Assembly: GCA_017889625.1 (NCBI GenBank)
Contig: JAGGAD010000023.1
Location: 238-64,237, forward strand
Source of the DNA: Bacillota bacterium
GTDB lineage: Bacteria > Bacillota > Negativicutes > Sporomusales > CTSoil-080
Length of the DNA: 64,000 nt
Reading direction: 5' to 3'
How positions within the stretch are numbered: the first letter of the stretch is position 1; the number at the start of each line of letters is the position of its first letter. Shown here one piece after another: positions 53,006 through 64,000 of this stretch. The notes under the pieces were generated by a model. It was not told the DNA's origin. It saw only the letters and a list, made by a program, of their open reading frames with translations, and did not search any database. The translations under genes and the position numbers were made by a program.

Positions 53006-54631
53006 ATGCCAATTTTTACCGTTAACGGAAAGGGCGTGCTCTATACGACAAGCAAAAATTACGCAGTAAAAATTTCGTTAGTATATCTTTTGTTTGGGAT
53101 ATTGTGGATTTTATTATCCGATAGTTTAATCGGATTTTTATCTTTAAATAGAGAGATTGTAATTTGGTTTTCTGTTATTAAGGGCTGGATTTTTGTTGGC
53201 TTATCCGCTTTGCTTATTTACATTGTCGGTAAGCGGTATATGCAAAAATTAGCTAATGCTAACCAGTTGCAACAAGAAATTTTGCAGGCTATGCCTGATT
53301 TAATTCTACGGATAGATAGCCAGGGGATATTTATCGACTATAATAAACCGCCCGATTTTGATTTATATGTTTCGCCGAAACAATTTTTAGGGAAAAGCGT
53401 TTTTGATGTTTTTCCCCAAAAAATTGCCGAAAGAGCGATTGAGCATATTAAAAATACCATCATTAGTGGGAAGATACAATTAATTGAGTATCAGCTACCA
53501 CAAAATAGCAAAGTGCATTACTTTGAAGCTCGCTTTGTCAAAAGTGGCGAGGCCGAGGTAATGGCTATAGTCAGAGAAATTACTTATAAAAAGCAAATTG
53601 AGCAAAGGTTGGAATTCCTTAGCTTAAATGATTCACTTACTGAAGTACACAACCGGGCCTATTTTGAGGAGCAAATCCGTAAGATTCGCAGTAATGATGG
53701 TGAAAATCCGGGCATTATTGTCTGTGATGTTGATGGTCTTAAATTAATTAATGATGCACTAGGTCACTTCGCAGGCGATCAATTACTCAAGGCCGCAGCC
53801 CAAATACTGAGTTCTTGCACATTTTTCCCCGATGTTATCGCCAGAATTGGCGGTGACGAATTTGCAATAATTGTGTCAAATCCTAAGAAACAAAAAATGA
53901 ATGAGCTAGCTAGGACAATTAAAATAGCTGTAGAGAAATATAACCAAAGTAACCCCAAGCTTCCGTTAAGCCTTTCCTGCGGTTGGGCAATTGGTTCTGA
54001 GGACATCAGTGTGCTGTTTAAGGAAGCGGATAACAACATGTATCGCGAAAAAATGCGTAAGGGGATCGGTACACATAGTGCAGTGGTACAAGCAATGATA
54101 CGGGCTTTAGAAACCAGGGATTATATTACGGAAGGGCATGCTGAGCGTGTTGAAATACTAATCGAAGAATTTGCGCAGAAAATGCAACTGGCTGACTCAA
54201 TGATTGCCGATTTGAAGCTGCTGGCAAAATTTCATGATATCGGGAAAGTGGGAATTCCGGATGACATTTTATTTAATCCGGGAAAACTAACGGCTGATGA
54301 AAGTACGGTTTTGCGCCGTCACTGTGATATTGGGTTCCGGATAGCGAAATCAGTGCCGGACTTAGCGCCTATTGCCGATTGGATTTTAAAGCATCATGAA
54401 TGGTGGAATGGCAAAGGATATCCCCTTAACCTTGTTGGTGAAGAAATTCCCTTGGCTTGTCGGATGTTGGCGATAGCCGATGCTTTTGATGCCATGACGA
54501 ATGACCGCCCATACCGCAAAGCCATGAATTATCAAGAAGCTATCAATGAACTACAGCGCTGTGCTGGAACACAATTTGATCCGGTTCTTACTGAAAGTTT
54601 CATTGAAATAATAACTAACTTACCTACATGA
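53006..54631 (+). CDS. Membrane PAS-GGDEF-HD-GYP c-di-GMP turnover protein
   Basis: Two TMs, PAS, RIGGDEF, HDIGK, HHEWWNGKGYP, ADAFDAM. Confidence 0.93.
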   Translation: MPIFTVNGKGVLYTTSKNYAVKISLVYLLFGILWILLSDSLIGFLSLNREIVIWFSVIKGWIFVGLSALLIYIVGKRYMQKLANANQLQQEILQAMPDLILRIDSQGIFIDYNKPPDFDLYVSPKQFLGKSVFDVFPQKIAERAIEHIKNTIISGKIQLIEYQLPQNSKVHYFEARFVKSGEAEVMAIVREITYKKQIEQRLEFLSLNDSLTEVHNRAYFEEQIRKIRSNDGENPGIIVCDVDGLKLINDALGHFAGDQLLKAAAQILSSCTFFPDVIARIGGDEFAIIVSNPKKQKMNELARTIKIAVEKYNQSNPKLPLSLSCGWAIGSEDISVLFKEADNNMYREKMRKGIGTHSAVVQAMIRALETRDYITEGHAERVEILIEEFAQKMQLADSMIADLKLLAKFHDIGKVGIPDDILFNPGKLTADESTVLRRHCDIGFRIAKSVPDLAPIADWILKHHEWWNGKGYPLNLVGEEIPLACRMLAIADAFDAMTNDRPYRKAMNYQEAINELQRCAGTQFDPVLTESFIEIITNLPT

Positions 54632-54690
54632 TTGACATTTTTCTTATAAAGGGGTATAGTTACCTTTGTTAATTATTAACCATGGTAACT
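54632..54690 (+). promoter_or_regulatory. SigA promoter with MarR-type inverted operator
   Basis: TTGACA(54632)-17-TATAGT(54655); AGTTACC...GGTAACT palindrome 54658-54690. Confidence 0.7.
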
Positions 54691-54711
54691 GTTTTTGGAA
54701 AGGAGACTATT

Positions 54712-55143
54712 TTGCAGGGCTTTTTTCGTCGTTGTTTATTACTAAATAGAGCATTTATCAGTAAAATGAATGAAGTTCTCGGAGTATATGGCCTTTCTTA
54801 CTCCAAATGGACGGTTGTTTGTTATGTGAAAGATCATGGATCTTCTATGTTGGTGGATATTGCAAACCATGCTAATGTAAGAAATCCGGTAATTACTAGG
54901 ATTGTGCAGAGGTTAGAAGAGAATGGTGTAGTACAGCAAATACCTGGTCTGGATAAACGGGAAAAAATAATTGAGTTAACGGAAAAAGGCGAGCGGATTT
55001 ATCAAGAATGCCGCAAAGTTATTGATAACCTGGAACGGAAGGTATTGGCAGGTATTTCCGAAGAAGAGATAAAAGCAGCGTTTGAAGTTTTTCCTAAAGT
55101 ACGAGATAATCTAATGGATATAGGTGATAATAAGAATGAATAA
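54712..55143 (+). CDS. MarR-family regulator
   Basis: ITRIVQRLEENG.V....DKREK...LTEKG; TTG start after AAGGAG. Confidence 0.9.
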   Translation: MQGFFRRCLLLNRAFISKMNEVLGVYGLSYSKWTVVCYVKDHGSSMLVDIANHANVRNPVITRIVQRLEENGVVQQIPGLDKREKIIELTEKGERIYQECRKVIDNLERKVLAGISEEEIKAAFEVFPKVRDNLMDIGDNKNE

Positions 55144-56335
55144 CGTCAAATTATGGACTAGAGATTTTTTGATTGATTCAATAACAAATTTGTTTATTTA
55201 TTTAGCGTTTTATTTGTTGATGGTGACGATAACAACTTATGCAATGGATAATTTACAGGCTTCGCCAAGTGAGGCTGGACTTGCGTCCGGCATTTTTATT
55301 GTCGGGACACTTATTGCTCGGGTTTTTGTGGGAAAAGCGATCGACCGGGTTGGCAGGAAAAAGACCCTTTATGTTGGCTTGGTTTTATTTTTAGGGATGA
55401 CTTTGTTGCATTTTGGCGTAAACAACCTGGTGTTTCTGGTAGTTATTCGTTTTTTGCATGGGGCAGCATTTGGGATTGCGGCAACAGCGACGGGAACGAT
55501 TGCCGCGAGTGTCATTCCGCATGAACGGCGGGGTGAAGGGATCAGTTATTATGCAATGAGCCTTGCGCTGGCTTCAGCAATCGGACCTTTTTTAGGGATG
55601 TTTATTAATCAACAGGGCAGCTTTAATATGGTGTTGTTGTTAGCGGCAATTCTAGTGTTAGCAAGTTTAATTGCAGTGCTATTTTTAAGGGTACCTGAAG
55701 CCGAGCTGACGGAAGAGCAATTGGTTAAGATGAAAGGGGTTGCGTTGAGTAATTTCTTCGAAGCTCAGGCAATTCCGATTTCGCTTGTCAGTATATTTAT
55801 CGGCTTGGGCTATTCAAGTATTTTGAGTTTCATGGCGGTTTATGCCAGGGAAATAAATTTAGCTGATGCGGGCAGTTTTTTCTTTATTGTTTATGCGATA
55901 GCCACGTTAATTTCCCGACCATTAACTGGTCGCTGGTTTGATCAAAAAGGGGAAAATTTTGTTATGTATCCCGCATTCCTGGTCTTTGCACTTAGCTTGG
56001 TTATTCTTAGCCAAGCTTATCAGGGCAGCATTCTCTTGTTGGCGGGAATATTTGTGGGCTTTGGTTATGGGACATTATTGTCGAGTTCTCAAGCGATAGC
56101 GGTTAAGGTATCACCGCGCCATCGCTTAGGGTTAGCGACGTCTACTTTTTATATTTTCCTTGATGGCGGGGTAGGAATTGGACCATTTTTATTAGGCTTT
56201 TTGATTCCAATAACCGGATTCCGCGGATTGTATATGAGTATGGCGATTGTTCTTTTGTGCTGCACTTTTTTATATTATTTTTTGCATGGGAGAAAACCGG
56301 CAGAGTATGGTGAGGAGCTTGTTACCGAGGGTTAG
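55136..56335 (+). CDS. MFS transporter
   Basis: KLWT.DF, G..IDRVGRK, RFLHG, RRGEGI.YY. Confidence 0.92.
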   Translation: MNNVKLWTRDFLIDSITNLFIYLAFYLLMVTITTYAMDNLQASPSEAGLASGIFIVGTLIARVFVGKAIDRVGRKKTLYVGLVLFLGMTLLHFGVNNLVFLVVIRFLHGAAFGIAATATGTIAASVIPHERRGEGISYYAMSLALASAIGPFLGMFINQQGSFNMVLLLAAILVLASLIAVLFLRVPEAELTEEQLVKMKGVALSNFFEAQAIPISLVSIFIGLGYSSILSFMAVYAREINLADAGSFFFIVYAIATLISRPLTGRWFDQKGENFVMYPAFLVFALSLVILSQAYQGSILLLAGIFVGFGYGTLLSSSQAIAVKVSPRHRLGLATSTFYIFLDGGVGIGPFLLGFLIPITGFRGLYMSMAIVLLCCTFLYYFLHGRKPAEYGEELVTEG

Positions 56336-56622: not shown

Positions 56623-57846
56623 ATGGCTAATACAGTAGTAAAAATTAATTTAGAAAAATACGATCTTGATGGTGAAGCGATATTGGTCGTAGATACTGTT
56701 GAACGAAGTGTTCCGGCCAAAGGCGGAATCAGGGTACGGGAAAATTTAGCGGAAGAAGAGGTGGCCGCTTTATCGGCAGAAATGACAAGAAAGTGCATTT
56801 TGGCTGATATTCCGTTTGGTGGGGCTAAAGGCGGGATTCGGTTAGCTGACTTGAAACAGGTGGATAAGGCCATGTACGCGTTTGGCAGAGAGCTTGCTAA
56901 AATTGATTTTATCCCTTATCGCTGGTGTGCCGCACCGGATGTAAATACGGATAGCAAGGCGGTAGATTCTTTTATTGCCGGGTGTGCTTCGGTTATCGGC
57001 TGGCGAAAAGCCCGGTTGGCGGCAACCGGAAAAAGTACGGGGATTCCTCACGAACTTGGCAGTACCGCTTATGGGGTTGTCTTGAGCATTGAAGAGACGC
57101 TTAAGCAAATGTCGCTTAAGTTTAAACTGCAAGGCGCGACGGCAATTGTTGAAGGTACCGGTGAGGTTGGTGGTAACGCAATTCCACTGTTAATAGAAAA
57201 AGGTGTAACTATCCTTGGCATAAGTGATATTAGTGGTGCGTTATATTGTGCTGCAGGTCTTGAAGGAACTGCTTTGCGCCAGTTGATTGAGGAGAAGCGG
57301 CTGATAAAAGATGCCGTGGCAAGTTTTAACGGAGCGATATATGAGGCTAATCCTGGTTCTTTGTTAACGAAACCGGCGGATATTCTTTTGTTAGCGGGCC
57401 CAGGCCGCAGTATTAATGAGGATAACTGCCGGGAAGTAAAAGTAAAGCTGATTGCCGAAGGCGCTAATATTGCGTATGTCAATAATGAATTGAGAAATGT
57501 GGTTCATGGCAGAGGAATTTACTCAATCCCCGGAATTATAGCTAATTCTGGCGGCGTAATATCAAGCTATGAGGAATGGATCATGGAAACGGAAAATCTG
57601 ATGCATTTATCTATCGAAGCGAAGTGGCTTCGAGTAAAGCAGTCGATAGCGAAAAGAGTTAGCCGTAATATTCAAGAGTTATGTGCCAAGTCGGTTCAGC
57701 AGCCAGGGGTTAATCTGTATGAGTGTGCATTAGCGATGGTAGAGGAAAGAATGGCGGATGCTCGGCAGGAAAACAAAAAACTGCGGGTTTTAACGAAAAA
57801 CATTAATAAAGAGTTGGAAGAAAAATTTGCAGTTTTTACTTGTTAG
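56623..57846 (+). CDS. Glu/Leu/Phe/Val dehydrogenase, glutamate-type signature
   Basis: PAKGGIR, MTRK, GGAKGG, APDVNT, TGK, EGAN, NSGGVISS. Confidence 0.85.
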   Translation: MANTVVKINLEKYDLDGEAILVVDTVERSVPAKGGIRVRENLAEEEVAALSAEMTRKCILADIPFGGAKGGIRLADLKQVDKAMYAFGRELAKIDFIPYRWCAAPDVNTDSKAVDSFIAGCASVIGWRKARLAATGKSTGIPHELGSTAYGVVLSIEETLKQMSLKFKLQGATAIVEGTGEVGGNAIPLLIEKGVTILGISDISGALYCAAGLEGTALRQLIEEKRLIKDAVASFNGAIYEANPGSLLTKPADILLLAGPGRSINEDNCREVKVKLIAEGANIAYVNNELRNVVHGRGIYSIPGIIANSGGVISSYEEWIMETENLMHLSIEAKWLRVKQSIAKRVSRNIQELCAKSVQQPGVNLYECALAMVEERMADARQENKKLRVLTKNINKELEEKFAVFTC

Positions 57847-57907
57847 TTAGTACCGATTTTACCAATACAGATGCTGCGAAAAATAGTATTATAATAAATA
57901 AGAGAAA

Positions 57908-57999
57908 GATGTAGTGATGTACATCGCTCAAATAATAATCGGCAGAGTCGCCTCAATAGTACTACTTAGGTAGTGGTGCTATTGAGGCGCTTATTTTTT
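57908..57999 (+). promoter_or_regulatory. Dual-hairpin ANTAR-type leader with overlapping terminator
   Basis: Hairpin 57908-57925 (contains AGTGAT); GGC-AGAGTC-GCC 57941-57952; terminator cgcctcaatag / ctattgaggcg + T tract. Confidence 0.65.
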
Positions 58000-58035
58000 A
58001 ATCGCCGATGCAGAAATAAAACAAGAGGTGGAAAG

Positions 58036-58443
58036 ATGAATTTAGAACGTACCAATTATTCTTCAGGGGCTCCGTTAGAAGCCAAATCCGGCTACAGCCG
58101 AGTAGTAAAAGTAGGACCATTTGTTTATGTTGGCGGTACCACCGCGGTACAGCCGGATGGCACTGTGTATGGGGAAAATGACGGTTATGGTCAAGCTAAA
58201 TTTGTTTTTGAAAAAATGTTAAAATGTATGGCGGAAGCTGGGGGCGCGGCTAGTGAGGTTGTCAAAGTAAAGTTGTATACGACCGACATGAGCCGGGCCG
58301 GGGAATATGCTAAAGCGTATTCGGAAATATTCAAAGAGATTAAACCTTTGTTTACGATGGTAGGAATTGCTGCTCTAAATCGTCCCAGTCAACTGGTAGA
58401 AATTGAAATAGATGCTATTATTGGTTCTGCTCAGAAATTATAA
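58036..58443 (+). CDS. RidA/YjgF (Rid) family protein
   Basis: SSG.P.E...GYSR.V, V.GTTA, LVEIE; SD GAGGTG. Confidence 0.88.
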   Translation: MNLERTNYSSGAPLEAKSGYSRVVKVGPFVYVGGTTAVQPDGTVYGENDGYGQAKFVFEKMLKCMAEAGGAASEVVKVKLYTTDMSRAGEYAKAYSEIFKEIKPLFTMVGIAALNRPSQLVEIEIDAIIGSAQKL

Positions 58444-58521
58444 TAAATAGCTAGGGATTATAATGGTGTAAGGGTTATTGGTTTTATCGAAATAAGTATA
58501 GCGATGATTTGTTAGTGGATT

Positions 58522-58577
58522 AACCACAAAGCTTTTGGTTGCACAATGACGTGTACTCCAAGGGGTTGTGGTTTTTT
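58522..58577 (+). promoter_or_regulatory. Leader terminator capped by an ANTAR-type hairpin
   Basis: aaccacaa...ttgtggtt + T tract with apical GCAC-AATGAC-GTGT. Confidence 0.5.
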
Positions 58578-58663
58578 GTTTTTATGAAACCAGGCAGTGG
58601 ACAATTAATCACAGGAAAAACAAAGGAGCTGTTAATTTCCGCAAAGTAAAAGGAGGAGTTATT

Positions 58664-60037
58664 ATGATTGAACAGTTTGGGTATAAGCAAGAATTTAAAC
58701 GAGCATTATCTTTACGGGATTTGGTTTTATTTGGAATGACTTTTATGTCGCCGACAGCAACGATGACGTTGTTTGGGATTATGTCGACAAATTCGCAAAA
58801 CCATGCGGTATTATCTTATGTATTTGGTTTTATCGCCATGATGTTTACTGCGATGAGTTACGGAAAAATGGTAGAAGAGTTTCCTGTTGCCGGCTCTACT
58901 TATAGCTATACGCAACGGGCAATTGATTCAAAATTAGGGTTTGTAGCCGGTTGGGTAATGTTGCTGGATTATATGTTAATTCCTCTGCTGTTATATATTG
59001 TAAGTGCAAATTATGCGCATGCGCTAATGCCGATGATTCCCTATTGGGCCTGGATTTTAATATTTGTAATTCCGGTTACAATTGTTAATTACCGGGGGGT
59101 GGAAGTGGCGGCAAAGGTGAACTTGGTGATCACGGTGATATTGTTTGCTTCGGTTCTGGCTTTTGTTATTGCCGCCGTTGGCTATGCGGCTGGAAATTCT
59201 ATGCCGGTATTTGAATTAAAGGCTATATATAACAGTGAGACATTTTCGGTAACTGGGGTAGTGGCGGGGGCCGCTATGGCAGTGCTTTCTTACCTAGGGT
59301 TTGATGGTATAACGACATTATCGGAAGAAGCTAATGTCAGCAGTGATAAAATCAAGAAGGCCATTATTTGCGCGTGCGTTTTTCAAACCATTATCTTTGT
59401 AGCGGTTGCTTATTTTGCAACAATGTACGCTCCGGATTACACGGCCTTTGCTGATTTAGACACGATTTTTTACGATATAACTTATAAAGTAGGCGGAGCG
59501 GCATTACAGCTTTTTGTTACTCTGGTGATTATTATTTCCGGTCCCGCTACCGCGTTAGCCGGACAGTCTTCCGCCAGCCGGCTGTTGTTTGGGATGGGAC
59601 GGGATAACTTAATTTCCAAGAAGATATTTGCGCATATTCACCCTAAATATAAAACGCCCTCGTACAGCATAATTATTATGGGCATTCTTGGCGCAATCGG
59701 CGGCTTGACTGTTAGTATGGAAATCGTAACGGATATTGTAACTTTTGGTGGCTTGATTGGCTTTATTTGCGTGAATTTTGCGGTGTTCTATTATTTCGCG
59801 CTAAAAAAAGGAAAATATAACTTATTTAGTAACATTATCTTCCCTTTTCTTGGCGTTCTAAGTTGTGGCTATATATTGTGTAATTTGTCGGATATCGGAA
59901 AAATTGTTGGTTTCAGCTGGATGGGCTTAGGAATCGTTTATTTAGTAATGCGTTCGGCCGGTTCTAGTAAATTTAGACAGTTACTTAGCAATAAGCATGA
60001 CCTGGTTCAGGCAGAAGCGGCTTTTGAAAAGACGTGA
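58664..60037 (+). CDS. APC-family amine/amino acid permease (PuuP/PlaP-like)
   Basis: GYKQE.KR.L, P.AGS.YSY, LDY, SYLGFDGITTLSEE, SRLLFGMGRD. Confidence 0.9.
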   Translation: MIEQFGYKQEFKRALSLRDLVLFGMTFMSPTATMTLFGIMSTNSQNHAVLSYVFGFIAMMFTAMSYGKMVEEFPVAGSTYSYTQRAIDSKLGFVAGWVMLLDYMLIPLLLYIVSANYAHALMPMIPYWAWILIFVIPVTIVNYRGVEVAAKVNLVITVILFASVLAFVIAAVGYAAGNSMPVFELKAIYNSETFSVTGVVAGAAMAVLSYLGFDGITTLSEEANVSSDKIKKAIICACVFQTIIFVAVAYFATMYAPDYTAFADLDTIFYDITYKVGGAALQLFVTLVIIISGPATALAGQSSASRLLFGMGRDNLISKKIFAHIHPKYKTPSYSIIIMGILGAIGGLTVSMEIVTDIVTFGGLIGFICVNFAVFYYFALKKGKYNLFSNIIFPFLGVLSCGYILCNLSDIGKIVGFSWMGLGIVYLVMRSAGSSKFRQLLSNKHDLVQAEAAFEKT

Positions 60038-60211
60038 ATTTAAATCGGTTATCAGTTAGAGGACAAAAAGGTAGACTATATGTCGCGTAGTATTGATGCT
60101 ACAACGGCGTTTCATCAATATTACGCGGTAAGTATTCCGTTTTTAACAATACAAGCTGCCGTAATAATATTAAAATTAGAGTTGTGGTTGTAATATGAGA
60201 GAGGTGTTAGT

Positions 60212-60397
60212 ATGGTTGAACGCTTAAATCCATTTTCAGTATGTCCGGCCTGTGGCAGTGTTGCAACATGGGACAGCTATAAACAGAAAAATATTTGTAG
60301 AGAATGCGAGCAGATACGGAAAATTTTTAAAGGACCGATTGAAATTAACCCGGCTGTAAGTAGGCAGGATGTACTCGAAAAAAATGCCAGCGATTAA
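60212..60397 (+). CDS. Small zinc-ribbon protein
   Basis: CPAC...CREC; SD GAGGTG. Confidence 0.6.
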   Translation: MVERLNPFSVCPACGSVATWDSYKQKNICRECEQIRKIFKGPIEINPAVSRQDVLEKNASD

Positions 60398-60513
60398 AGT
60401 GGATGTCAGTTTTTATTTGGGAGAGAAATAGTTTATTGGCTGCGAAACCGTTTTAGTTCTGATTTTTACTATAATTTCGTGGCCGTATATTTTAAAATAA
60501 AGATAAGTTAATG

Positions 60514-60559
60514 AGACAAAGGCGTCTGATTCCTGCGGGAGTTAGACGCCTAAATTTTT
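60514..60559 (+). promoter_or_regulatory. ANTAR-type hairpin overlapping a leader terminator-like stem
   Basis: AGAC-AAAGGC-GTCT; competing stem aggcgtctgattcc / ggagttagacgcct + aaatttt. Confidence 0.65.
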
Positions 60560-60573
60560 AGGGGGTAATAATT

Positions 60574-61704
60574 ATGCTACCAGCAATTGATTTTTTGTAT
60601 TTGAATGAGGAAGATATGATAAAAGCAGGCGTTATGGATATGAAGGGCTGTATCGAAGCGATGGAGGATATGTTAAAGGCGATGAACGTCGGTGACTATG
60701 TGATGGGGGGAGCTAACCACAACTCGCATGGGGTTATGGTTACGTTTCCCGAAAAATCGCCATTTCCGAATATGCCGGTCGACGGACCTGACAGAAGATT
60801 TATGGCGATGCCGGCATATTTGGGGGGCAAATTTGATATGGCGGGGATGAAATGGTACGGGTCCAATGTAGCCAACCGGGGAAAAGGGCTGCCTCGTTCG
60901 ATCCTGATGTTAATGCTCAATGATAAAGATACGGGAGCGCCAAAGGCATTAATGTCAGCCAATATATTAAGTGCTTACCGCACCGGAGCCATACCGGGCG
61001 TAGGGGTCAAGCATCTGGCGATAAAGGATGCTAAGGTTGTCGCAATTGATGGACCGGGGATTATGAATCGAACCGCGTTAAAAGCCTGTCTCTGTGCTCG
61101 TCCAAAGATTGATACGGTTAAAATTCATGGACGGGGGAAGGCATCAATAGATAAATTTATCACTCATGTAAAAGAAAACTATCCGCAGATAAAAACAATA
61201 GAAGTTGCCGATAGCCTTCAAGAAGCAATTAAGGATGCGGATATTATTAGTTCTGCGACATCAGGCACCGTGGGGTCAGCTACTCATCCTTATATAAAAG
61301 AAGAATGGATAAAACCAGGGGCGTTACTTTGTTTGCCGGCTAATATCCGCTTCGATGATGACTTTATTCTTAACCGGGCGAAGAACGTTGTCGATAATAT
61401 AAAACTTTATGAAGCTTGGGCGGAAGAACTGCCGTATCCAGGGTTTGAAATAGTCGGGTTGATCGGGGTGCATTTTATGGATCTAGTCCATGATGGTAAG
61501 ATGGCACCATCGCAAATTGATGATTTAGGCGATATTTTGCTGGGCAAGAAACCTGGTCGTAAGGATGATGAGGAAATAATCATTTATTCTGTTGGCGGAA
61601 TGCCGGTTGAGGATGTTGCTTGGGGGACAATGATTTACCGTAATGCGCTAAAAATGGGTATCGGTCAAAAGTTAAATCTTTGGGATAAACCAGCAATGGC
61701 TTGA
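60574..61704 (+). CDS. Ornithine cyclodeaminase/mu-crystallin family protein (TynB tyramine oxidase subunit B-like)
   Basis: DRRFMAMPAYLGG, KWYGSN, LND..TG.P, LSAYRTGA, G..PGR, GGMPVEDVAWG. Confidence 0.85.
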   Translation: MLPAIDFLYLNEEDMIKAGVMDMKGCIEAMEDMLKAMNVGDYVMGGANHNSHGVMVTFPEKSPFPNMPVDGPDRRFMAMPAYLGGKFDMAGMKWYGSNVANRGKGLPRSILMLMLNDKDTGAPKALMSANILSAYRTGAIPGVGVKHLAIKDAKVVAIDGPGIMNRTALKACLCARPKIDTVKIHGRGKASIDKFITHVKENYPQIKTIEVADSLQEAIKDADIISSATSGTVGSATHPYIKEEWIKPGALLCLPANIRFDDDFILNRAKNVVDNIKLYEAWAEELPYPGFEIVGLIGVHFMDLVHDGKMAPSQIDDLGDILLGKKPGRKDDEEIIIYSVGGMPVEDVAWGTMIYRNALKMGIGQKLNLWDKPAMA

Positions 61705-61726
61705 GTATACGATAGGGAGCGAGCAT

Positions 61727-62065
61727 ATGAACAGCAGAATAAAAGAGCATCCGATCTTAGGTAAAATAGAAAAGGGACGGCGCGTAACGTTTTCGCATGA
61801 TGGTAATATTATTGAAGGTTTTGAGGGTGAGCCGATTTCGGCCGCTCTTAAGGCGGCAGGAGTTATGGTTCACCGCCATACGCAGAAATATGGCGCTCCG
61901 CGCGGCATATTCTGTGCAATTGGCCGTTGTACTGATTGTGTCATGGTTGTTGATGGTAAACCGAATATCCGAACATGCATAACGCCTCTGGCGGAAGGCA
62001 TGATTGTAGAAACCCAGTATGGTGTTTCCGCTAAGAGTACGAACAAAGCGGAGGGAATGGCATGA
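61727..62065 (+). CDS. 2Fe-2S subunit (HcnA/opine or proline dehydrogenase small-subunit-like)
   Basis: GEPI.AAL, RGIFCAIGRCTDC...PNIRTC. Confidence 0.88.
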   Translation: MNSRIKEHPILGKIEKGRRVTFSHDGNIIEGFEGEPISAALKAAGVMVHRHTQKYGAPRGIFCAIGRCTDCVMVVDGKPNIRTCITPLAEGMIVETQYGVSAKSTNKAEGMA

Positions 62066-63651
62066 AAAGATATGATTTGATTGTAGTTGGCGCAGGTCCT
62101 GCCGGCCTTTCCGCAGCGGTTGAAGCCGCAAAATACGGATTAAAAGTGGTTGTTTTTGATGAAAATGCCAATCCAGGCGGACAGCTTTTTAAGCAAGTTC
62201 ATAAGTTCTTTGGTTCTAAAGAGCATAAGGCAAAAATTCGCGGGTTTCGAATTGGCAGTCAATTGCTGGAAGAAGCCAATAATCTTGGGGTTGAGGTCGT
62301 TTTAAATGCTACGGTAGCGGGGCTGTTTCAGGATAAGGAAATAACGGTTCGGATCAAGGATTCGATTCAGCATTATAAAGGTGATGCGATTCTTGTTGCT
62401 ACTGGTGCGGCAGAGAATATGGTTCCGTTTAAGGGTTGGACGCTTCCCGGTGTAATTGGGGCTGGAGCAGCTCAGACGATGATGAATTTACATGGTGTTG
62501 TACCGGGACAAAAGATATTGATGCTCGGGTCGGGAAATGTCGGGCTGGTGGTTAGTTATCAGCTATTGCAAGCTGGCTGTGAAGTAGTAGCGCTGGTTGA
62601 TGCCGCACCAAAAATCGGCGGCTATGGTGTACATGCCGCAAAGCTTGCGCGAACCGGGGTACCGTTCTATTTATCCCATACTATTATTAAGGCTGAGGGT
62701 ACTGATTGTGTGACTGGCGTTACTATTGCTGAAGTAGATAAGACATGGAAAACTATCCCTGGAACAGCGAAGAGCTTAGCAGTAGATACGATTTGCCTGG
62801 CGGTTGGACTTTCGCCGATGGCTCAACTTCTTAAAATGGCGGGTTGTATAATGGAGGATAATCCGAAAAAAGGCGGTCAGGTTCCGGTGTGTAATGCTTA
62901 TGGCGAAACATCGCTGCGGGGAGTTTTTGTGGCAGGCGATGTTTCGGGGGTTGAGGAAGCAAGTTCGGCGATGATTGAGGGGCGTATTGCCGGTATTGCC
63001 GCTGCTGAATATTTGGGATATATCGATAAAGCTGTATTGACCGAAGTGGCTGAGGCTCTTGAAAGTGCCTTGAGCAGTCTGCGGCAAGGCATGTTTGCTG
63101 TGGAAAACAGGGGTAAAAATATTGAGAAGACGGATGAGGGGTATGTGGTTTCCCAGCATCTTTTGAAAAAAGGATATTTTCAAGATGCTGAAGTCGAGAA
63201 ATATCCAGGAGTCACGCGGCAGCCTGGGGTTCATGCTGTGATCGAGTGTTCGCAGAATATACCGTGTAATCCTTGCCAGGATGCGTGTCCAAGGCATTGT
63301 ATTAAGATTGGCGACAAGATTACCTCTTTGCCGGTTGTCGATGAGACGGCAAATTGCAGTGGCTGTGGTATGTGTGTGGCGGCTTGTTCTGGGCAGGCGA
63401 TATTCTTGGTGAATGAAGGCTATGAGGCTGGGTACGCAAGTATAACAATTCCTTATGAATTTTTGCCGCTGCCAGGAGAAGGTGATCGTGGTTGGGCCTT
63501 GGATCGCGGGGGTTCAAAAGTTTGTGCGGCTGAGGTTGTGAAGGTGCAGACTGCACCAGTTTTTGATCATACCAGTTTGTTGACAATAAAAGTACCTGTT
63601 GCGATGGCAATGAAGGCACGATTCTTCAAGGAGGACAATTGTCATGCATAA
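62062..63651 (+). CDS. FAD-dependent oxidoreductase subunit (HcnB/OoxA-like) fused to a 2x[4Fe-4S] ferredoxin domain
   Basis: GAGPAG, ATGA.E, GWTLPGV, GSGNVG, AGD; C..IPCNPC..ACP and CSGCGMCVAAC. Confidence 0.88.
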   Translation: MKRYDLIVVGAGPAGLSAAVEAAKYGLKVVVFDENANPGGQLFKQVHKFFGSKEHKAKIRGFRIGSQLLEEANNLGVEVVLNATVAGLFQDKEITVRIKDSIQHYKGDAILVATGAAENMVPFKGWTLPGVIGAGAAQTMMNLHGVVPGQKILMLGSGNVGLVVSYQLLQAGCEVVALVDAAPKIGGYGVHAAKLARTGVPFYLSHTIIKAEGTDCVTGVTIAEVDKTWKTIPGTAKSLAVDTICLAVGLSPMAQLLKMAGCIMEDNPKKGGQVPVCNAYGETSLRGVFVAGDVSGVEEASSAMIEGRIAGIAAAEYLGYIDKAVLTEVAEALESALSSLRQGMFAVENRGKNIEKTDEGYVVSQHLLKKGYFQDAEVEKYPGVTRQPGVHAVIECSQNIPCNPCQDACPRHCIKIGDKITSLPVVDETANCSGCGMCVAACSGQAIFLVNEGYEAGYASITIPYEFLPLPGEGDRGWALDRGGSKVCAAEVVKVQTAPVFDHTSLLTIKVPVAMAMKARFFKEDNCHA

Positions 63652-63979
63652 TGTTAATAATCGATCACGCGATATTGGTGAATTTGTTCCGGCTGAGGAT
63701 GATGAGTTGTTAATCTGCCGTTGCGAGGAGATTACTAAGGGTGAGATCCGGCGGGCTATTCATGACGGAATGTTTACTCTGACGGAAATAAGACGGTATC
63801 TGCGTACTGGTATGGGACTTTGCCAAGGCCAGACCTGCGGCAAGTTGGTAAAGGAAATCGCGGCAAGAGAGCTGGGGTTAGTTTTAAGTGAGTTGGGAAA
63901 TGCATCTTCTCGGGTGCCGATGCGTCCGATCGAAATGAAGGTATTTGGCAATGAAAAGGAGCCGGGAGAAAATGCATAA
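63644..63979 (+). CDS. BFD-like [2Fe-2S] subunit
   Basis: ICRCEEIT, R.GMGLCQGQTC, R.P.RP. Confidence 0.88.
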   Translation: MHNVNNRSRDIGEFVPAEDDELLICRCEEITKGEIRRAIHDGMFTLTEIRRYLRTGMGLCQGQTCGKLVKEIAARELGLVLSELGNASSRVPMRPIEMKVFGNEKEPGENA

Positions 63980-64000
63980 ATGTACAGAGGTTATAATTAT
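63972..64000 (+). CDS. Start of a probable FAD-dependent (DAO/HcnC-like) subunit, truncated by the window edge
   Basis: SD AAGGAG, ATG overlapping the previous stop; MHKCTEVII resembles the beta strand before GxGxxG; only 9 codons visible. Confidence 0.45.

Follow-up and report, generated by a model that had tools for sequence, protein, structure and literature searches.

The window analyzed here, a 64,000-nucleotide stretch of DNA from a Bacillota bacterium (G000:C73:238-64237), ends within a compact gene cluster, referred to below as the cassette, that pairs an enzyme of the ornithine cyclodeaminase (OCD)/mu-crystallin family with the subunits of a multi-Fe-S flavoprotein. The OCD-like gene (60574..61704, + strand, as are all genes of the region; Pfam PF02423, 249 bits) encodes an SbnB-like NAD(P) enzyme of the NF004848 family and is followed by genes for a γ-type [2Fe-2S] subunit (Fer2_4, 61727..62065; Pfam, 101 bits), a 529-amino acid (aa) α-type FAD/NAD(H) subunit with a cysteine-rich C-terminus (PNDR, 62062..63651; Pyr_redox_2, 120.6 bits, with a SoxA family match over residues 170–492), and a 111-aa BFD-like [2Fe-2S] protein that is equivalent to the A3 region of SoxA (63644..63979; Fer2_BFD, 51.8 bits; SO_alpha_A3, 37.2 bits). 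A first-pass annotation of this DNA had placed the listed open reading frames (ORFs) correctly, all on the + strand, and had assigned them families that our searches largely bear out. It had also expected the window edge to cut the cluster in a probable DAO subunit; the contig runs 1565 bases past the window end, and a 384-aa DAO-family catalytic (β) subunit is indeed encoded across that edge (63945..65099 in window-equivalent numbering, with 63945..64000 inside the window; Pfam DAO, 237.7 bits). The aldehyde oxidoreductase and ANTAR regulator that it had predicted farther downstream are not what follows; the next gene encodes the N-terminal 107 aa of an AraC/DUF6597 regulator (65243..65565, window-equivalent, with 65565 the last base of the contig; DUF6597, 40.5 bits), and a search of the assembly for the remainder of this gene returned only this N-terminal fragment at the contig end.

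Upstream of the OCD-like gene lie a divergent ELFV (glutamate-type) dehydrogenase of 407 aa (56623..57846; Pfam ELFV_dehydrog, 135.4 bits, and ELFV_dehydrog_N, 62.4 bits), referred to here as glutamate dehydrogenase (GDH)-like, a 135-aa Rid-family protein of an Arg-less type (58036..58443; Pfam Ribonuc_L-PSP, 84.4 bits), and an APC-superfamily permease (58568..60037; AA_permease, 120 bits; AA_permease_2, 94 bits). The Rid ORF is listed from 57973, although translation probably begins with the ATG at 58036. In the stretch from the GDH-like stop (57846) to this ATG, a hairpin scan placed an intrinsic-terminator-like hairpin with an 18-bp stem, 8 G-C pairs and a T-run (57949–57989), followed by CTTATTTTTT (57949..57999 in all). 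The same scan found a 14-bp hairpin directly 5′ of the OCD-like ribosome-binding site (60520..60551), which could be the terminator of a Rid-permease unit or a 5′ leader element, and no Rfam family matched at E ≤ 0.1 across the 9.8-kb region. The genes from OCD to DAO are tightly packed, with gaps of 22, −4, −8 and −8 (or −35) bases for OCD-Fer2-PNDR-BFD-DAO. Because of the two hairpins and the 22-base or overlapping spacing from OCD to DAO, the region is read as three putative transcription units, namely the GDH-like gene alone, Rid-permease, and OCD-Fer2-PNDR-BFD-DAO. The hairpin 3′ of the GDH-like gene therefore means that shared orientation is not proof of a single operon.

The four-protein flavoprotein carries the hallmarks of a family of heteromeric flavin/Fe-S dehydrogenases that includes opine dehydrogenase, D-hydroxyproline dehydrogenase, HCN synthase and archaeal L-proline dehydrogenase (L-ProDH), for which defining motifs have been described (PMC4575208). 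Its γ-type subunit contains C63-x4-C68-x2-C71-x12-C84, which fits the family pattern C-x4-C-x2-C-x11–12-C and retains its four cysteines in 53/53 sequences. The α-type [2Fe-2S] motif, C25-x-C27…C60-x4-C65, is found on the BFD protein and is kept in 60/60, with a central spacer of 32 residues in the window protein as compared to 15–20 in the family (PMC4575208). R304 and W306 of the β-subunit R-x-W (FMN) motif are invariant in 52/52, and ADP-binding motifs are present in both the β (GGGIIG) and α (GAGPAG) subunits, the latter having in addition a second dinucleotide fold (GSGNVG…VALVD). The proposal of the first-pass annotation that this is a complex of the Hcn/Oox/ProDH type is thus borne out, since the γ, α [2Fe-2S], R-x-W and ADP-binding motifs are all present and conserved. 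A further characteristic of this family is an α4β4γ4 assembly that contains FAD, FMN and Fe-S clusters. The α-type subunit also ends in a tail in which ten C-terminal cysteines, including a classical C-x2-C-x2-C-x3-C, are kept in 66–67 of 67 sequences; Fer4_7 scored 24.2 bits there, just under its cut-off of 27, and this double cysteine cluster is described here as 2×[4Fe-4S]-like.

Among solved structures, the β subunit is best matched by the β subunit of Pyrococcus horikoshii L-ProDH (1y56_B, 146.8 bits), followed by L-amino acid deaminases and glycine oxidase at ~105 bits, and equivalog models for D-amino acid dehydrogenases fell well short of their cut-offs (86.9 versus 383 and 53.5 versus 494 bits). 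L-ProDH oxidizes the C–N bond that is distal to the carboxylate. A search for fused forms of the DAO subunit gave one protein of 880 aa with an odd domain mix, which was judged a likely gene-call merge and was not used.

A related module occurs elsewhere in the same genome, where contig C57 (L104:7282-13613, − strand) encodes, in order, a GlpP antiterminator, a MIP channel, an FGGY kinase, a DAO+BFD fusion of 491 aa, a PNDR protein and a DUF1667 protein. This PNDR protein (421 aa) is 33% identical to the α subunit of the window, and the cluster, which lies beside glpP-glpF-glpK, is of the anaerobic, glycerol-3-phosphate-dehydrogenase type and shares the DAO/BFD/PNDR/Cys-rich layout of the cassette. 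By analogy, this suggests that dehydrogenases of the DAO type may generally use the PNDR/Fe-S module to pass on their electrons without oxygen.

The partner of this complex was assigned by the first-pass annotation to the ‘TynB’ family, and the assignment holds, as the OCD-like protein scores 604.8 bits against a cut-off of 362 on NF004848 (PRK06199, ‘tyramine oxidase subunit B’) over positions 6–378 of 379, with a whole-genome search in agreement. The family name reportedly goes back to the tyn genes of Pseudomonas putida U, as studied by Arcos and coworkers in 2010. All equivalog models for OCD were below cut-off (NF005762, 60.4 versus 350; NF006379, 128.4 versus 417; NF005296, 43 versus 438; NF006141, 76.2 versus 408 bits), as were TIGR02371 (141.5 versus 409) and the SbnB model TIGR03944 (177 versus 326.9); more generally, the protein was far below every cut-off for models of alanine dehydrogenase (AlaDH), pyrroline-2-carboxylate (P2C) reductase, SbnB, EutC and BhcD. 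Among solved structures, SbnB comes first both in sequence (4m54, 119 bits) and in fold (4mp6; E 1.5e-27, TM 0.75/0.83), ahead of archaeal AlaDH, the Thermococcus litoralis P2C reductase and P. putida OCD. This ranking is the one use made of an AlphaFold2 (AF2) model that has a mean pLDDT of 76 and is good in the Rossmann domain only. The T. litoralis enzyme TlLhpI (6t3e) matches the protein at 95 bits by sequence, with a fold E of 2.6e-24.

Conserved residues help to narrow the type of chemistry that this enzyme may perform. In the OCD superfamily, as set out in PMC4141209, substrate is bound by an [R/K]-K-R-D tetrad, E56-D228-K232 (P. putida numbering) are specific to OCD itself, and an Asp marks the NAD-specific members. 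Among the OCD-like proteins of related cassettes, R74/R75, K93, R136 and D347 are invariant (52/52), and the tetrad positions R75/K93/R136/D347 align with those of LhpI and AlaDH. The position of the NAD-type Asp is occupied by Gly (G186, 52/52) and followed by Arg (R187, 50/52). An RFDDDF motif is also invariant, with LPANIRFDDDF aligning to the G-x-D-x-PGK-x-E of AlaDH and LhpI in gapped pairwise alignments of a set that includes no true OCD. By these sequence criteria (equivalog scores of 60 versus 350 and 128 versus 417, and the invariant RFDDDF) the protein is probably not a cyclodeaminase, as had been anticipated, and it is predicted to be an NADPH-linked enzyme whose substrate has an α-carboxylate and an amine or imine nitrogen. 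Reductive alkylamination of 2-oxo acids is known within the superfamily from SbnB, from the tauropine/strombine subfamilies and from the N-methyl-L-alanine dehydrogenase activity of TlLhpI (PMC4141209).

A 41-kDa ‘putative Ocd’ of Corynebacterium glutamicum is presumably, from its size, of the NF004848 family. Over-production of that protein gave no OCD activity (PMC3702523). In addition, the OCD-like domain occurs in a fusion to an APC permease (P0122, 847 aa, 66% identical, 48 member sequences) and in another to an Amidohydro_3 domain (P0123, 936 aa, 53% identical), both of which are weak hints only.

To define what is conserved around this gene, the best 80 of 233 relatives of the OCD-like protein (from a scan of one genome per species) were analyzed as related loci, with gene presence scored by tblastn at E ≤ 1e-5 over at least half of the query. 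The relatives are 62–68% identical to the window protein and are carried by Lacrimispora, Acetobacterium, Ruminococcus, other Oscillospiraceae and Lachnospiraceae, Treponema, Desulfovibrionaceae, Desulfosporosinus and Clostridium; among the hosts are acetogens, sulfate reducers, and Ruminococcus and Treponema of the rumen and hindgut. Besides the OCD gene (80), the 80 loci contain Fer2 (70), DUF6597 (69), PNDR (68), DAO (68) and BFD (67) genes, and, as accessory genes, Rid (37), a permease of the type found in the window (9) and the GDH-like gene (1). Clustering of all ORFs from these loci revealed a second APC permease lineage of ~491 aa in 60/80 and a P-II-like protein of ~123 aa in 30/80, and identified the DUF6597 protein as an AraC-type regulator with an HTH_18 domain. 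Because many of the loci sit on short contigs, counts were also made for the 49 loci in which the OCD gene is flanked by 8 kb or more in both directions; all four complex genes are present in 47 of these, the regulator in 49, an APC permease in 44, Rid in 28, the P-II-like protein in 15, either Rid or the P-II-like protein in 38, and GDH in one. When operons were extended along the strand across gaps of < 250 bases, no non-core family recurred in more than three of the 80 related loci, and the cassette is self-contained. The earlier claim of a conserved unit made up of the OCD-like gene, the multi-Fe-S flavoprotein, a permease and, often, Rid is supported by these counts (47/49, 44/49 and 28/49), but the unit is narrower than first proposed and has the OCD-like gene, the complex, the regulator and a permease as its core.

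The distribution of the cassette is patchy. The NF004848 cut-off was reached in 0/20 genomes of the same order, and of the control genomes four matched the model, one of them above the cut-off. In a quick tree with SH-aLRT support, the OCD-like protein of the window clusters with those of Acetobacterium (support 95), and the Treponema sequences are nested within a 39-row clade of gut Bacillota (support 100).

A counterpart of this system exists in aerobic bacteria. Searching plasmids by tblastn recovered proteins from Proteobacteria that are 56–59% identical to the OCD-like protein and are annotated as ‘tyramine oxidase subunit B’, and five of these loci, on plasmids of Klebsiella, Sphingobium, Aminobacter, Acinetobacter and Pantoea, were inspected. 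All five have the gene order TynB-Rid-FAD-binding oxidoreductase, with an adjacent helix-turn-helix regulator in 4/5, an APC permease in 4/5 and an aldehyde dehydrogenase nearby in 2/5. The aerobic FAD enzyme is a DAO-family protein of 430–438 aa that is 26–29% identical to the β subunit of the window, and the regulator from Klebsiella shares 43% identity with the DUF6597 fragment at the contig end. Given the matches to the aerobic trio, to TynB (56–58%) and to the regulator (43%), the window cassette follows the aerobic design, except that an Fe-S flavoprotein of four proteins takes the place of the single flavoenzyme, so that, as judged from sequence, the window system is an oxygen-independent variant of a widespread two-enzyme C–N redox cassette. 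The literature searched contained no biochemical mechanism for either the aerobic or the anaerobic form, and it referred to the tyramine oxidase subunit in passing mentions only.

On plasmid pSH1 of Sphingobium xenophagum (L088, 7983-12460), the TynB-Rid-FAD oxidoreductase trio, with an aldehyde dehydrogenase after it, is inserted into the ndp cluster for nicotine degradation, where ndpC and ndpB flank it. The ndp nicotine pathway releases methylamine, and the pSH1 trio may handle this compound.

The first-pass annotation took the Rid protein to be the imine-hydrolyzing partner of the system, yet the Arg that defines imino-acid deaminases is absent. The conserved Arg of Rid proteins binds the carboxylate of the imino acid; at the column equivalent to Arg105 (in the numbering of the Escherichia coli protein) the window Rid has Phe, the 28/28 ORF-called cassette Rids have Phe, Cys or Leu, and the 5/5 aerobic Rids have Thr, Met or Ser. 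The window protein scores 55.3 bits on the RidA model TIGR00004, for which the cut-off is 106.25, and its best match in the Protein Data Bank is 3i7t. The genome also encodes its own canonical RidA (178.4 bits, contig C59), which keeps Arg at this column. Loss of this Arg from the cassette Rids would fit an imine substrate that is not a free 2-imino acid.

GDH, which the first-pass annotation had treated as a component of the system, is found in 2/81 loci, the window included, and in the window is separated from the cassette by the terminator. Placement of the GDH-like gene in the same operon as the cassette was considered and rejected because of the terminator-like hairpin; the gene is an accessory neighbor in a separate transcription unit. 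Its product scores at best 143.6 bits on the GDH equivalogs (cut-off 620), and when aligned to plant GDH (8owm; AKGGIR, GGAKGGI, GGVISSYEEW) it keeps the catalytic Lys and the KGG and SSY motifs, of which the KGG Lys and the Ser of VS/SS-Y occupy positions that we take to confer specificity for glutamate. The second case is in Desulfosporosinus nitroreducens (L072:5507-9311, − strand), where a GDH of canonical type (485.6 bits on GdhB_Halo, cut-off 620) has the cassette APC permease on one side and the divergent Rid-OCD-complex genes on the other, belongs to a divergent AraC-permease unit, and is missing from the sister genome L068. Two independent recruitments of GDH in 81 loci are a hint that glutamate is a product.

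An ortholog of the GDH-like protein (74% identical) is also encoded in a genome of the same family, on a contig region that has no OCD-like gene (G002, contig C152, L098:351-7290, + strand). The gene order there is class-III aminotransferase, amino-acid permease, GDH-like, PucR and an iron-type alcohol dehydrogenase (Fe-ADH), which looks like a unit for fermentation of ω-amino acids of the γ-aminobutyrate type, in which GDH would recycle 2-oxoglutarate for the transaminase.

The window permease, which had been called PuuP/PlaP-like, reached no NCBIfam equivalog cut-off; its 18 NCBIfam matches score well short of the respective cut-offs, and the names PuuP and PlaP do not occur among them. An APC permease is nonetheless presumed to be the importer of the substrate. 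In 30/80 loci, mostly of Ruminococcus/Oscillospiraceae and Treponema, the P-II-like protein is encoded directly before the 491-aa APC permease (for example, L025:14512-14883 and L022:15018-16493, both + strand). It is a divergent member of its family (Pfam P-II, 73 bits; NCBIfam, 76.8 bits versus a cut-off of 181), would be paired with an amino-acid or amine permease rather than with Amt, and points to a possible nitrogen control of the system.

Other features near the cassette are apparently separate from it. A 61-aa ORF with four cysteines (CxxC…CxxC), a possible zinc ribbon with a good ribosome-binding site, lies in the 536 bases between the permease and OCD-like genes (60212..60397, + strand); it has Pfam matches only below their cut-offs and was rejected as a part of the system, having no tblastn match in the 80 related loci. 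Farther upstream (53006-56335, + strand) are a signaling protein of the PAS-GGDEF-HD-GYP type, a MarR-family regulator whose best match is BilQ (53 bits, below the BilQ cut-off), and an overlapping MFS transporter, all of which are apparently unrelated to the cassette.

The cassette probably takes nitrogen from one imported amine or amino compound without oxygen. From the gene content, conservation, motifs and nearest relatives described above, we infer a substrate class, a reaction direction and an electron acceptor. The leading mechanism, to which we assign a probability of about 0.4, is that an amine is condensed with a 2-oxo acid and the other side of the resulting C–N linkage is then oxidized. 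An APC permease would import a primary amine, or a compound with a free amine, and the SbnB-like, NADPH-type OCD enzyme would join it reductively to a 2-oxo acid, probably 2-oxoglutarate, to form an N-alkyl-L-amino acid. The ProDH/Sox-like β subunit would oxidize the C–N bond on the alkyl side, a step that needs no oxygen, with electrons passing from FMN through the two [2Fe-2S] proteins to the α subunit and on to NAD+, or to ferredoxin via the 2×[4Fe-4S]-like tail. Hydrolysis of the aldimine, aided by Rid where Rid is present, would release an aldehyde and an L-amino acid (glutamate). Nitrogen would thereby be assimilated directly, and the separately transcribed GDH could free ammonia and regenerate 2-oxoglutarate. 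The net reaction would be a transamination that uses neither pyridoxal 5′-phosphate (PLP) nor oxygen, and both the P-II-like proteins and the GDH links would fit a role in nitrogen assimilation.

The chemistry of this scheme, much of which had been outlined before, is consistent by analogy with that of the nearest characterized relatives, namely SbnB, the OCD-family N-methylalanine dehydrogenase activity and the ProDH/Sox-like β subunits; proline can be seen as an N-alkyl amino acid closed on itself, and ProDH oxidizes it with just this regiochemistry. As a whole, the reading offered by the first-pass annotation survives in part, with the conserved unit, the TynB family and the type of complex standing, and with a fixed GDH, a downstream aldehyde oxidoreductase or ANTAR regulator, a Rid of the imino-acid-deaminase type and a PuuP/PlaP permease left unsupported. 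A more ambitious and rather doubtful version would make the cassette a PLP-free, oxygen-free ‘redox transaminase’ for primary amines (amine + 2-oxoglutarate giving glutamate + aldehyde + NADH or reduced ferredoxin), with the permease gated in many gut anaerobes by a P-II-like protein that reads 2-oxoglutarate.

Several observations weigh against reductive condensation of an amine followed by oxidation on its alkyl side. None of the 80 anaerobe loci has a linked aldehyde dehydrogenase, reductase or oxidoreductase, Rid is optional (37/80), and GDH is present in only one of the 80 related loci. The link to tyramine comes from an NCBIfam name and from the tyn genes reportedly studied by Arcos and coworkers, and the name alone is no functional evidence; the 26–29% identity between the β subunit and the aerobic FAD partner likewise does not imply a common substrate. 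On the side of the OCD-like enzyme, the NADP assignment derives from two residues, the direction in which the reaction would run is itself inferred, and the part of the AF2 model that covers the substrate domain is poor (pLDDT 38–57, residues 41–140). Finally, the substrates of those relatives of the complex that have been characterized are proline, hydroxyproline, opines or glycine, and not N-alkyl-glutamates (PMC4575208).

Other pairings of the two enzymes have to be weighed against this mechanism. In a Dau-like pair, the Fe-S flavoprotein would oxidize a D-amino (or other amino) acid to the 2-imino or 2-oxo acid and the OCD-like enzyme would reduce this with NADPH to the L-form, resulting in a D-to-L conversion that is redox-neutral and needs no oxygen, or in deamination if the imine is hydrolyzed. 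Precedent comes from the OCD superfamily, in which L-arginine dehydrogenase (subfamily 10) works with a DAO-family D-arginine dehydrogenase (PMC4141209), and the invariant tetrad for binding an α-carboxylate and amine, the NADP-type Rossmann signature, which suits a reductase, and the lack of need for a downstream enzyme if the product is a standard amino acid would all be accommodated; the Amidohydro_3-OCD fusion P0123 could even supply a D-amino acid from an N-acyl precursor. Although models for D-amino acid dehydrogenases do match the β subunit (86.9 bits), they do so far short of equivalog level (86.9 versus 383 and 53.5 versus 494), the best solved relative of that subunit being the β subunit of L-ProDH and not a D-amino acid dehydrogenase. 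The OCD-like protein is nearest to SbnB rather than to the AlaDH or arginine dehydrogenase type, and the Arg that would bind the carboxylate of a 2-imino acid is absent from the Rids of cassettes (28/28) and aerobic loci (5/5) alike, and we consider such an interconversion unlikely. A role in proline or pipecolate metabolism, in which the complex would be an L-proline/pipecolate dehydrogenase and the OCD-like enzyme would make or reduce a cyclic imino acid (being either a variant cyclodeaminase or a reductase of pyrroline- or piperideine-2-carboxylate), would draw on the clustering of an OCD-like gene with heteromeric L-ProDH in T. litoralis and T. sibiricus (PMC4141209), on the matches of the β subunit to 1y56_B (146.8 bits) and of the OCD-like protein to TlLhpI (95 bits; fold E 2.6e-24), and on the GDH linkage, which would suit conversion of proline to glutamate. 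The closeness to 1y56_B does not settle the substrate, however, because type 2 opine dehydrogenases are near archaeal ProDH yet inactive on proline (PMC4575208). Moreover, cyclodeaminase and P2C-reductase models are far below their cut-offs, the D228/K232 region of OCD appears to be replaced by the invariant RFDDDF, no gene for a proline racemase, a dehydratase-like protein or a pyrroline-5-carboxylate dehydrogenase is linked in the 80 loci, the C. glutamicum homolog (if its assumed membership in the family is correct) lacks OCD activity, and Rid would have no obvious role, which together make this reading distinctly unlikely.

Catabolism of an opine is, in our assessment, the least probable of these alternatives. 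The complex would then be an opine dehydrogenase like OdhABC, Oox or Nox that acts on an imported N-carboxyalkyl amino acid, with the OCD-like enzyme processing the product or serving as an alternative means of cleavage. Both the γ and α [2Fe-2S] motifs and the R-x-W motif of the flavin-containing opine dehydrogenases are present, and ooxAB and noxAB adjoin an ocd gene in the opine regions of Ti plasmids, although opine systems import their substrates by ABC transporters (PMC4575208), in contrast to the APC permease in 44/49 loci here. SbnB cleaves an N-alkyl-glutamate, but a second enzyme for the cleavage of secondary amines would be superfluous, the OCD of Agrobacterium is of a different type from the OCD-like protein (NF005762, 60 versus 350 bits), and there is no evident source of opines for the acetogens, the sulfate reducers, or the Ruminococcus and Treponema of rumen and hindgut.

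The near-constant association of TynB with a DAO-type dehydrogenase, a regulator and a permease, and the exchange for an Fe-S form in strict anaerobes, provide a clean and testable two-enzyme system. Known before are the OCD-like gene with heteromeric ProDH in Thermococcus and OCD with opine oxidase on Ti plasmids; new is a defined and widespread pairing of TynB with an Fe-S complex, and the literature searched yielded no account of the cassette or of its anaerobic variant. The TynB-type OCD-like family is very large, with at least 7998 scored relatives in one search, and is annotated by name only. If condensation with a 2-oxo acid and re-oxidation is the true mechanism, it would represent a cofactor-economical uptake of amine nitrogen without oxygen or PLP, with a bearing on biogenic-amine turnover in the rumen and gut and on nitrogen economy. 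A true redox transaminase would also explain the OCD-like subunit of the aerobic ‘tyramine oxidase’, and would be both a new route of nitrogen assimilation and a sink for biogenic amines in the Ruminococcus bromii/callidus groups, Treponema, Lachnospiraceae, acetogens and sulfate reducers. Should one of the rivals prove true, a role would still be assigned to thousands of misnamed ‘ornithine cyclodeaminase’ genes.

Among known systems, SbnB (4m54, 4mp3, 4mp6, 4mp8, 4mpd), an enzyme for a precursor of staphyloferrin B that acts on an N-alkyl-L-glutamate, shares with the OCD-like protein the superfamily tetrad and the apparent lack of the cyclodeaminase G-x-D-x-PGK-x-E. It differs in that identity is 24–26%, in having the Asp of the NAD type where the cassette family has Gly-Arg, and in working with a PLP enzyme in siderophore synthesis, whereas the partner of the cassette enzyme is a flavoprotein; the cassette family is also ~40 aa longer than SbnB and is described by a separate model, NF004848. 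In the N-methylglutamate pathway, amine nitrogen is placed onto a glutamate skeleton and a Sox-like multi-subunit dehydrogenase then yields an aldehyde and glutamate. That logic is the same as in the mechanism favored here, but the pathway relies on ATP-dependent and GltB-like synthases instead of an OCD-family reductase, and N-methylglutamate dehydrogenase has a folate-binding domain that is lacking in the window complex, where SoxA matches end at about residue 596 of 996.

The T. litoralis LhpI cluster likewise comes from an anaerobe and has an OCD-family gene next to those of a heteromeric ProDH-type complex, and LhpI has N-methyl-L-alanine dehydrogenase activity (PMC4141209), but this cluster carries genes for proline racemase or dehydratase-like proteins, and LhpI is of the NAD type (Asp159) and of another OCD subfamily. 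OdhABC (Oox/Nox), LhpBEF, HcnABC and archaeal L-ProDH resemble the window complex in their DAO-family β subunit with R-x-W, their γ cluster, the α-type C-x-C…C-x4-C and the two ADP-binding motifs (PMC4575208). In the window complex, unlike these, a separate protein of 111 aa carries the BFD cluster and the α subunit has an extra 2×[4Fe-4S]-like tail, and complexes of this type occur in strict anaerobes and are always paired with a TynB-type gene. The aerobic TynB cassette is alike in its OCD-like protein (56–58% identical), its Arg-less Rid, its DUF6597 regulator (43%), its nearby APC permease and its self-contained nature, and it is unlike the window form in using one DAO-family FAD enzyme of 430–438 aa where the window cassette has a [2Fe-2S] subunit, an FAD/NAD subunit with a 2×[4Fe-4S]-like tail, a BFD [2Fe-2S] protein and a DAO subunit.

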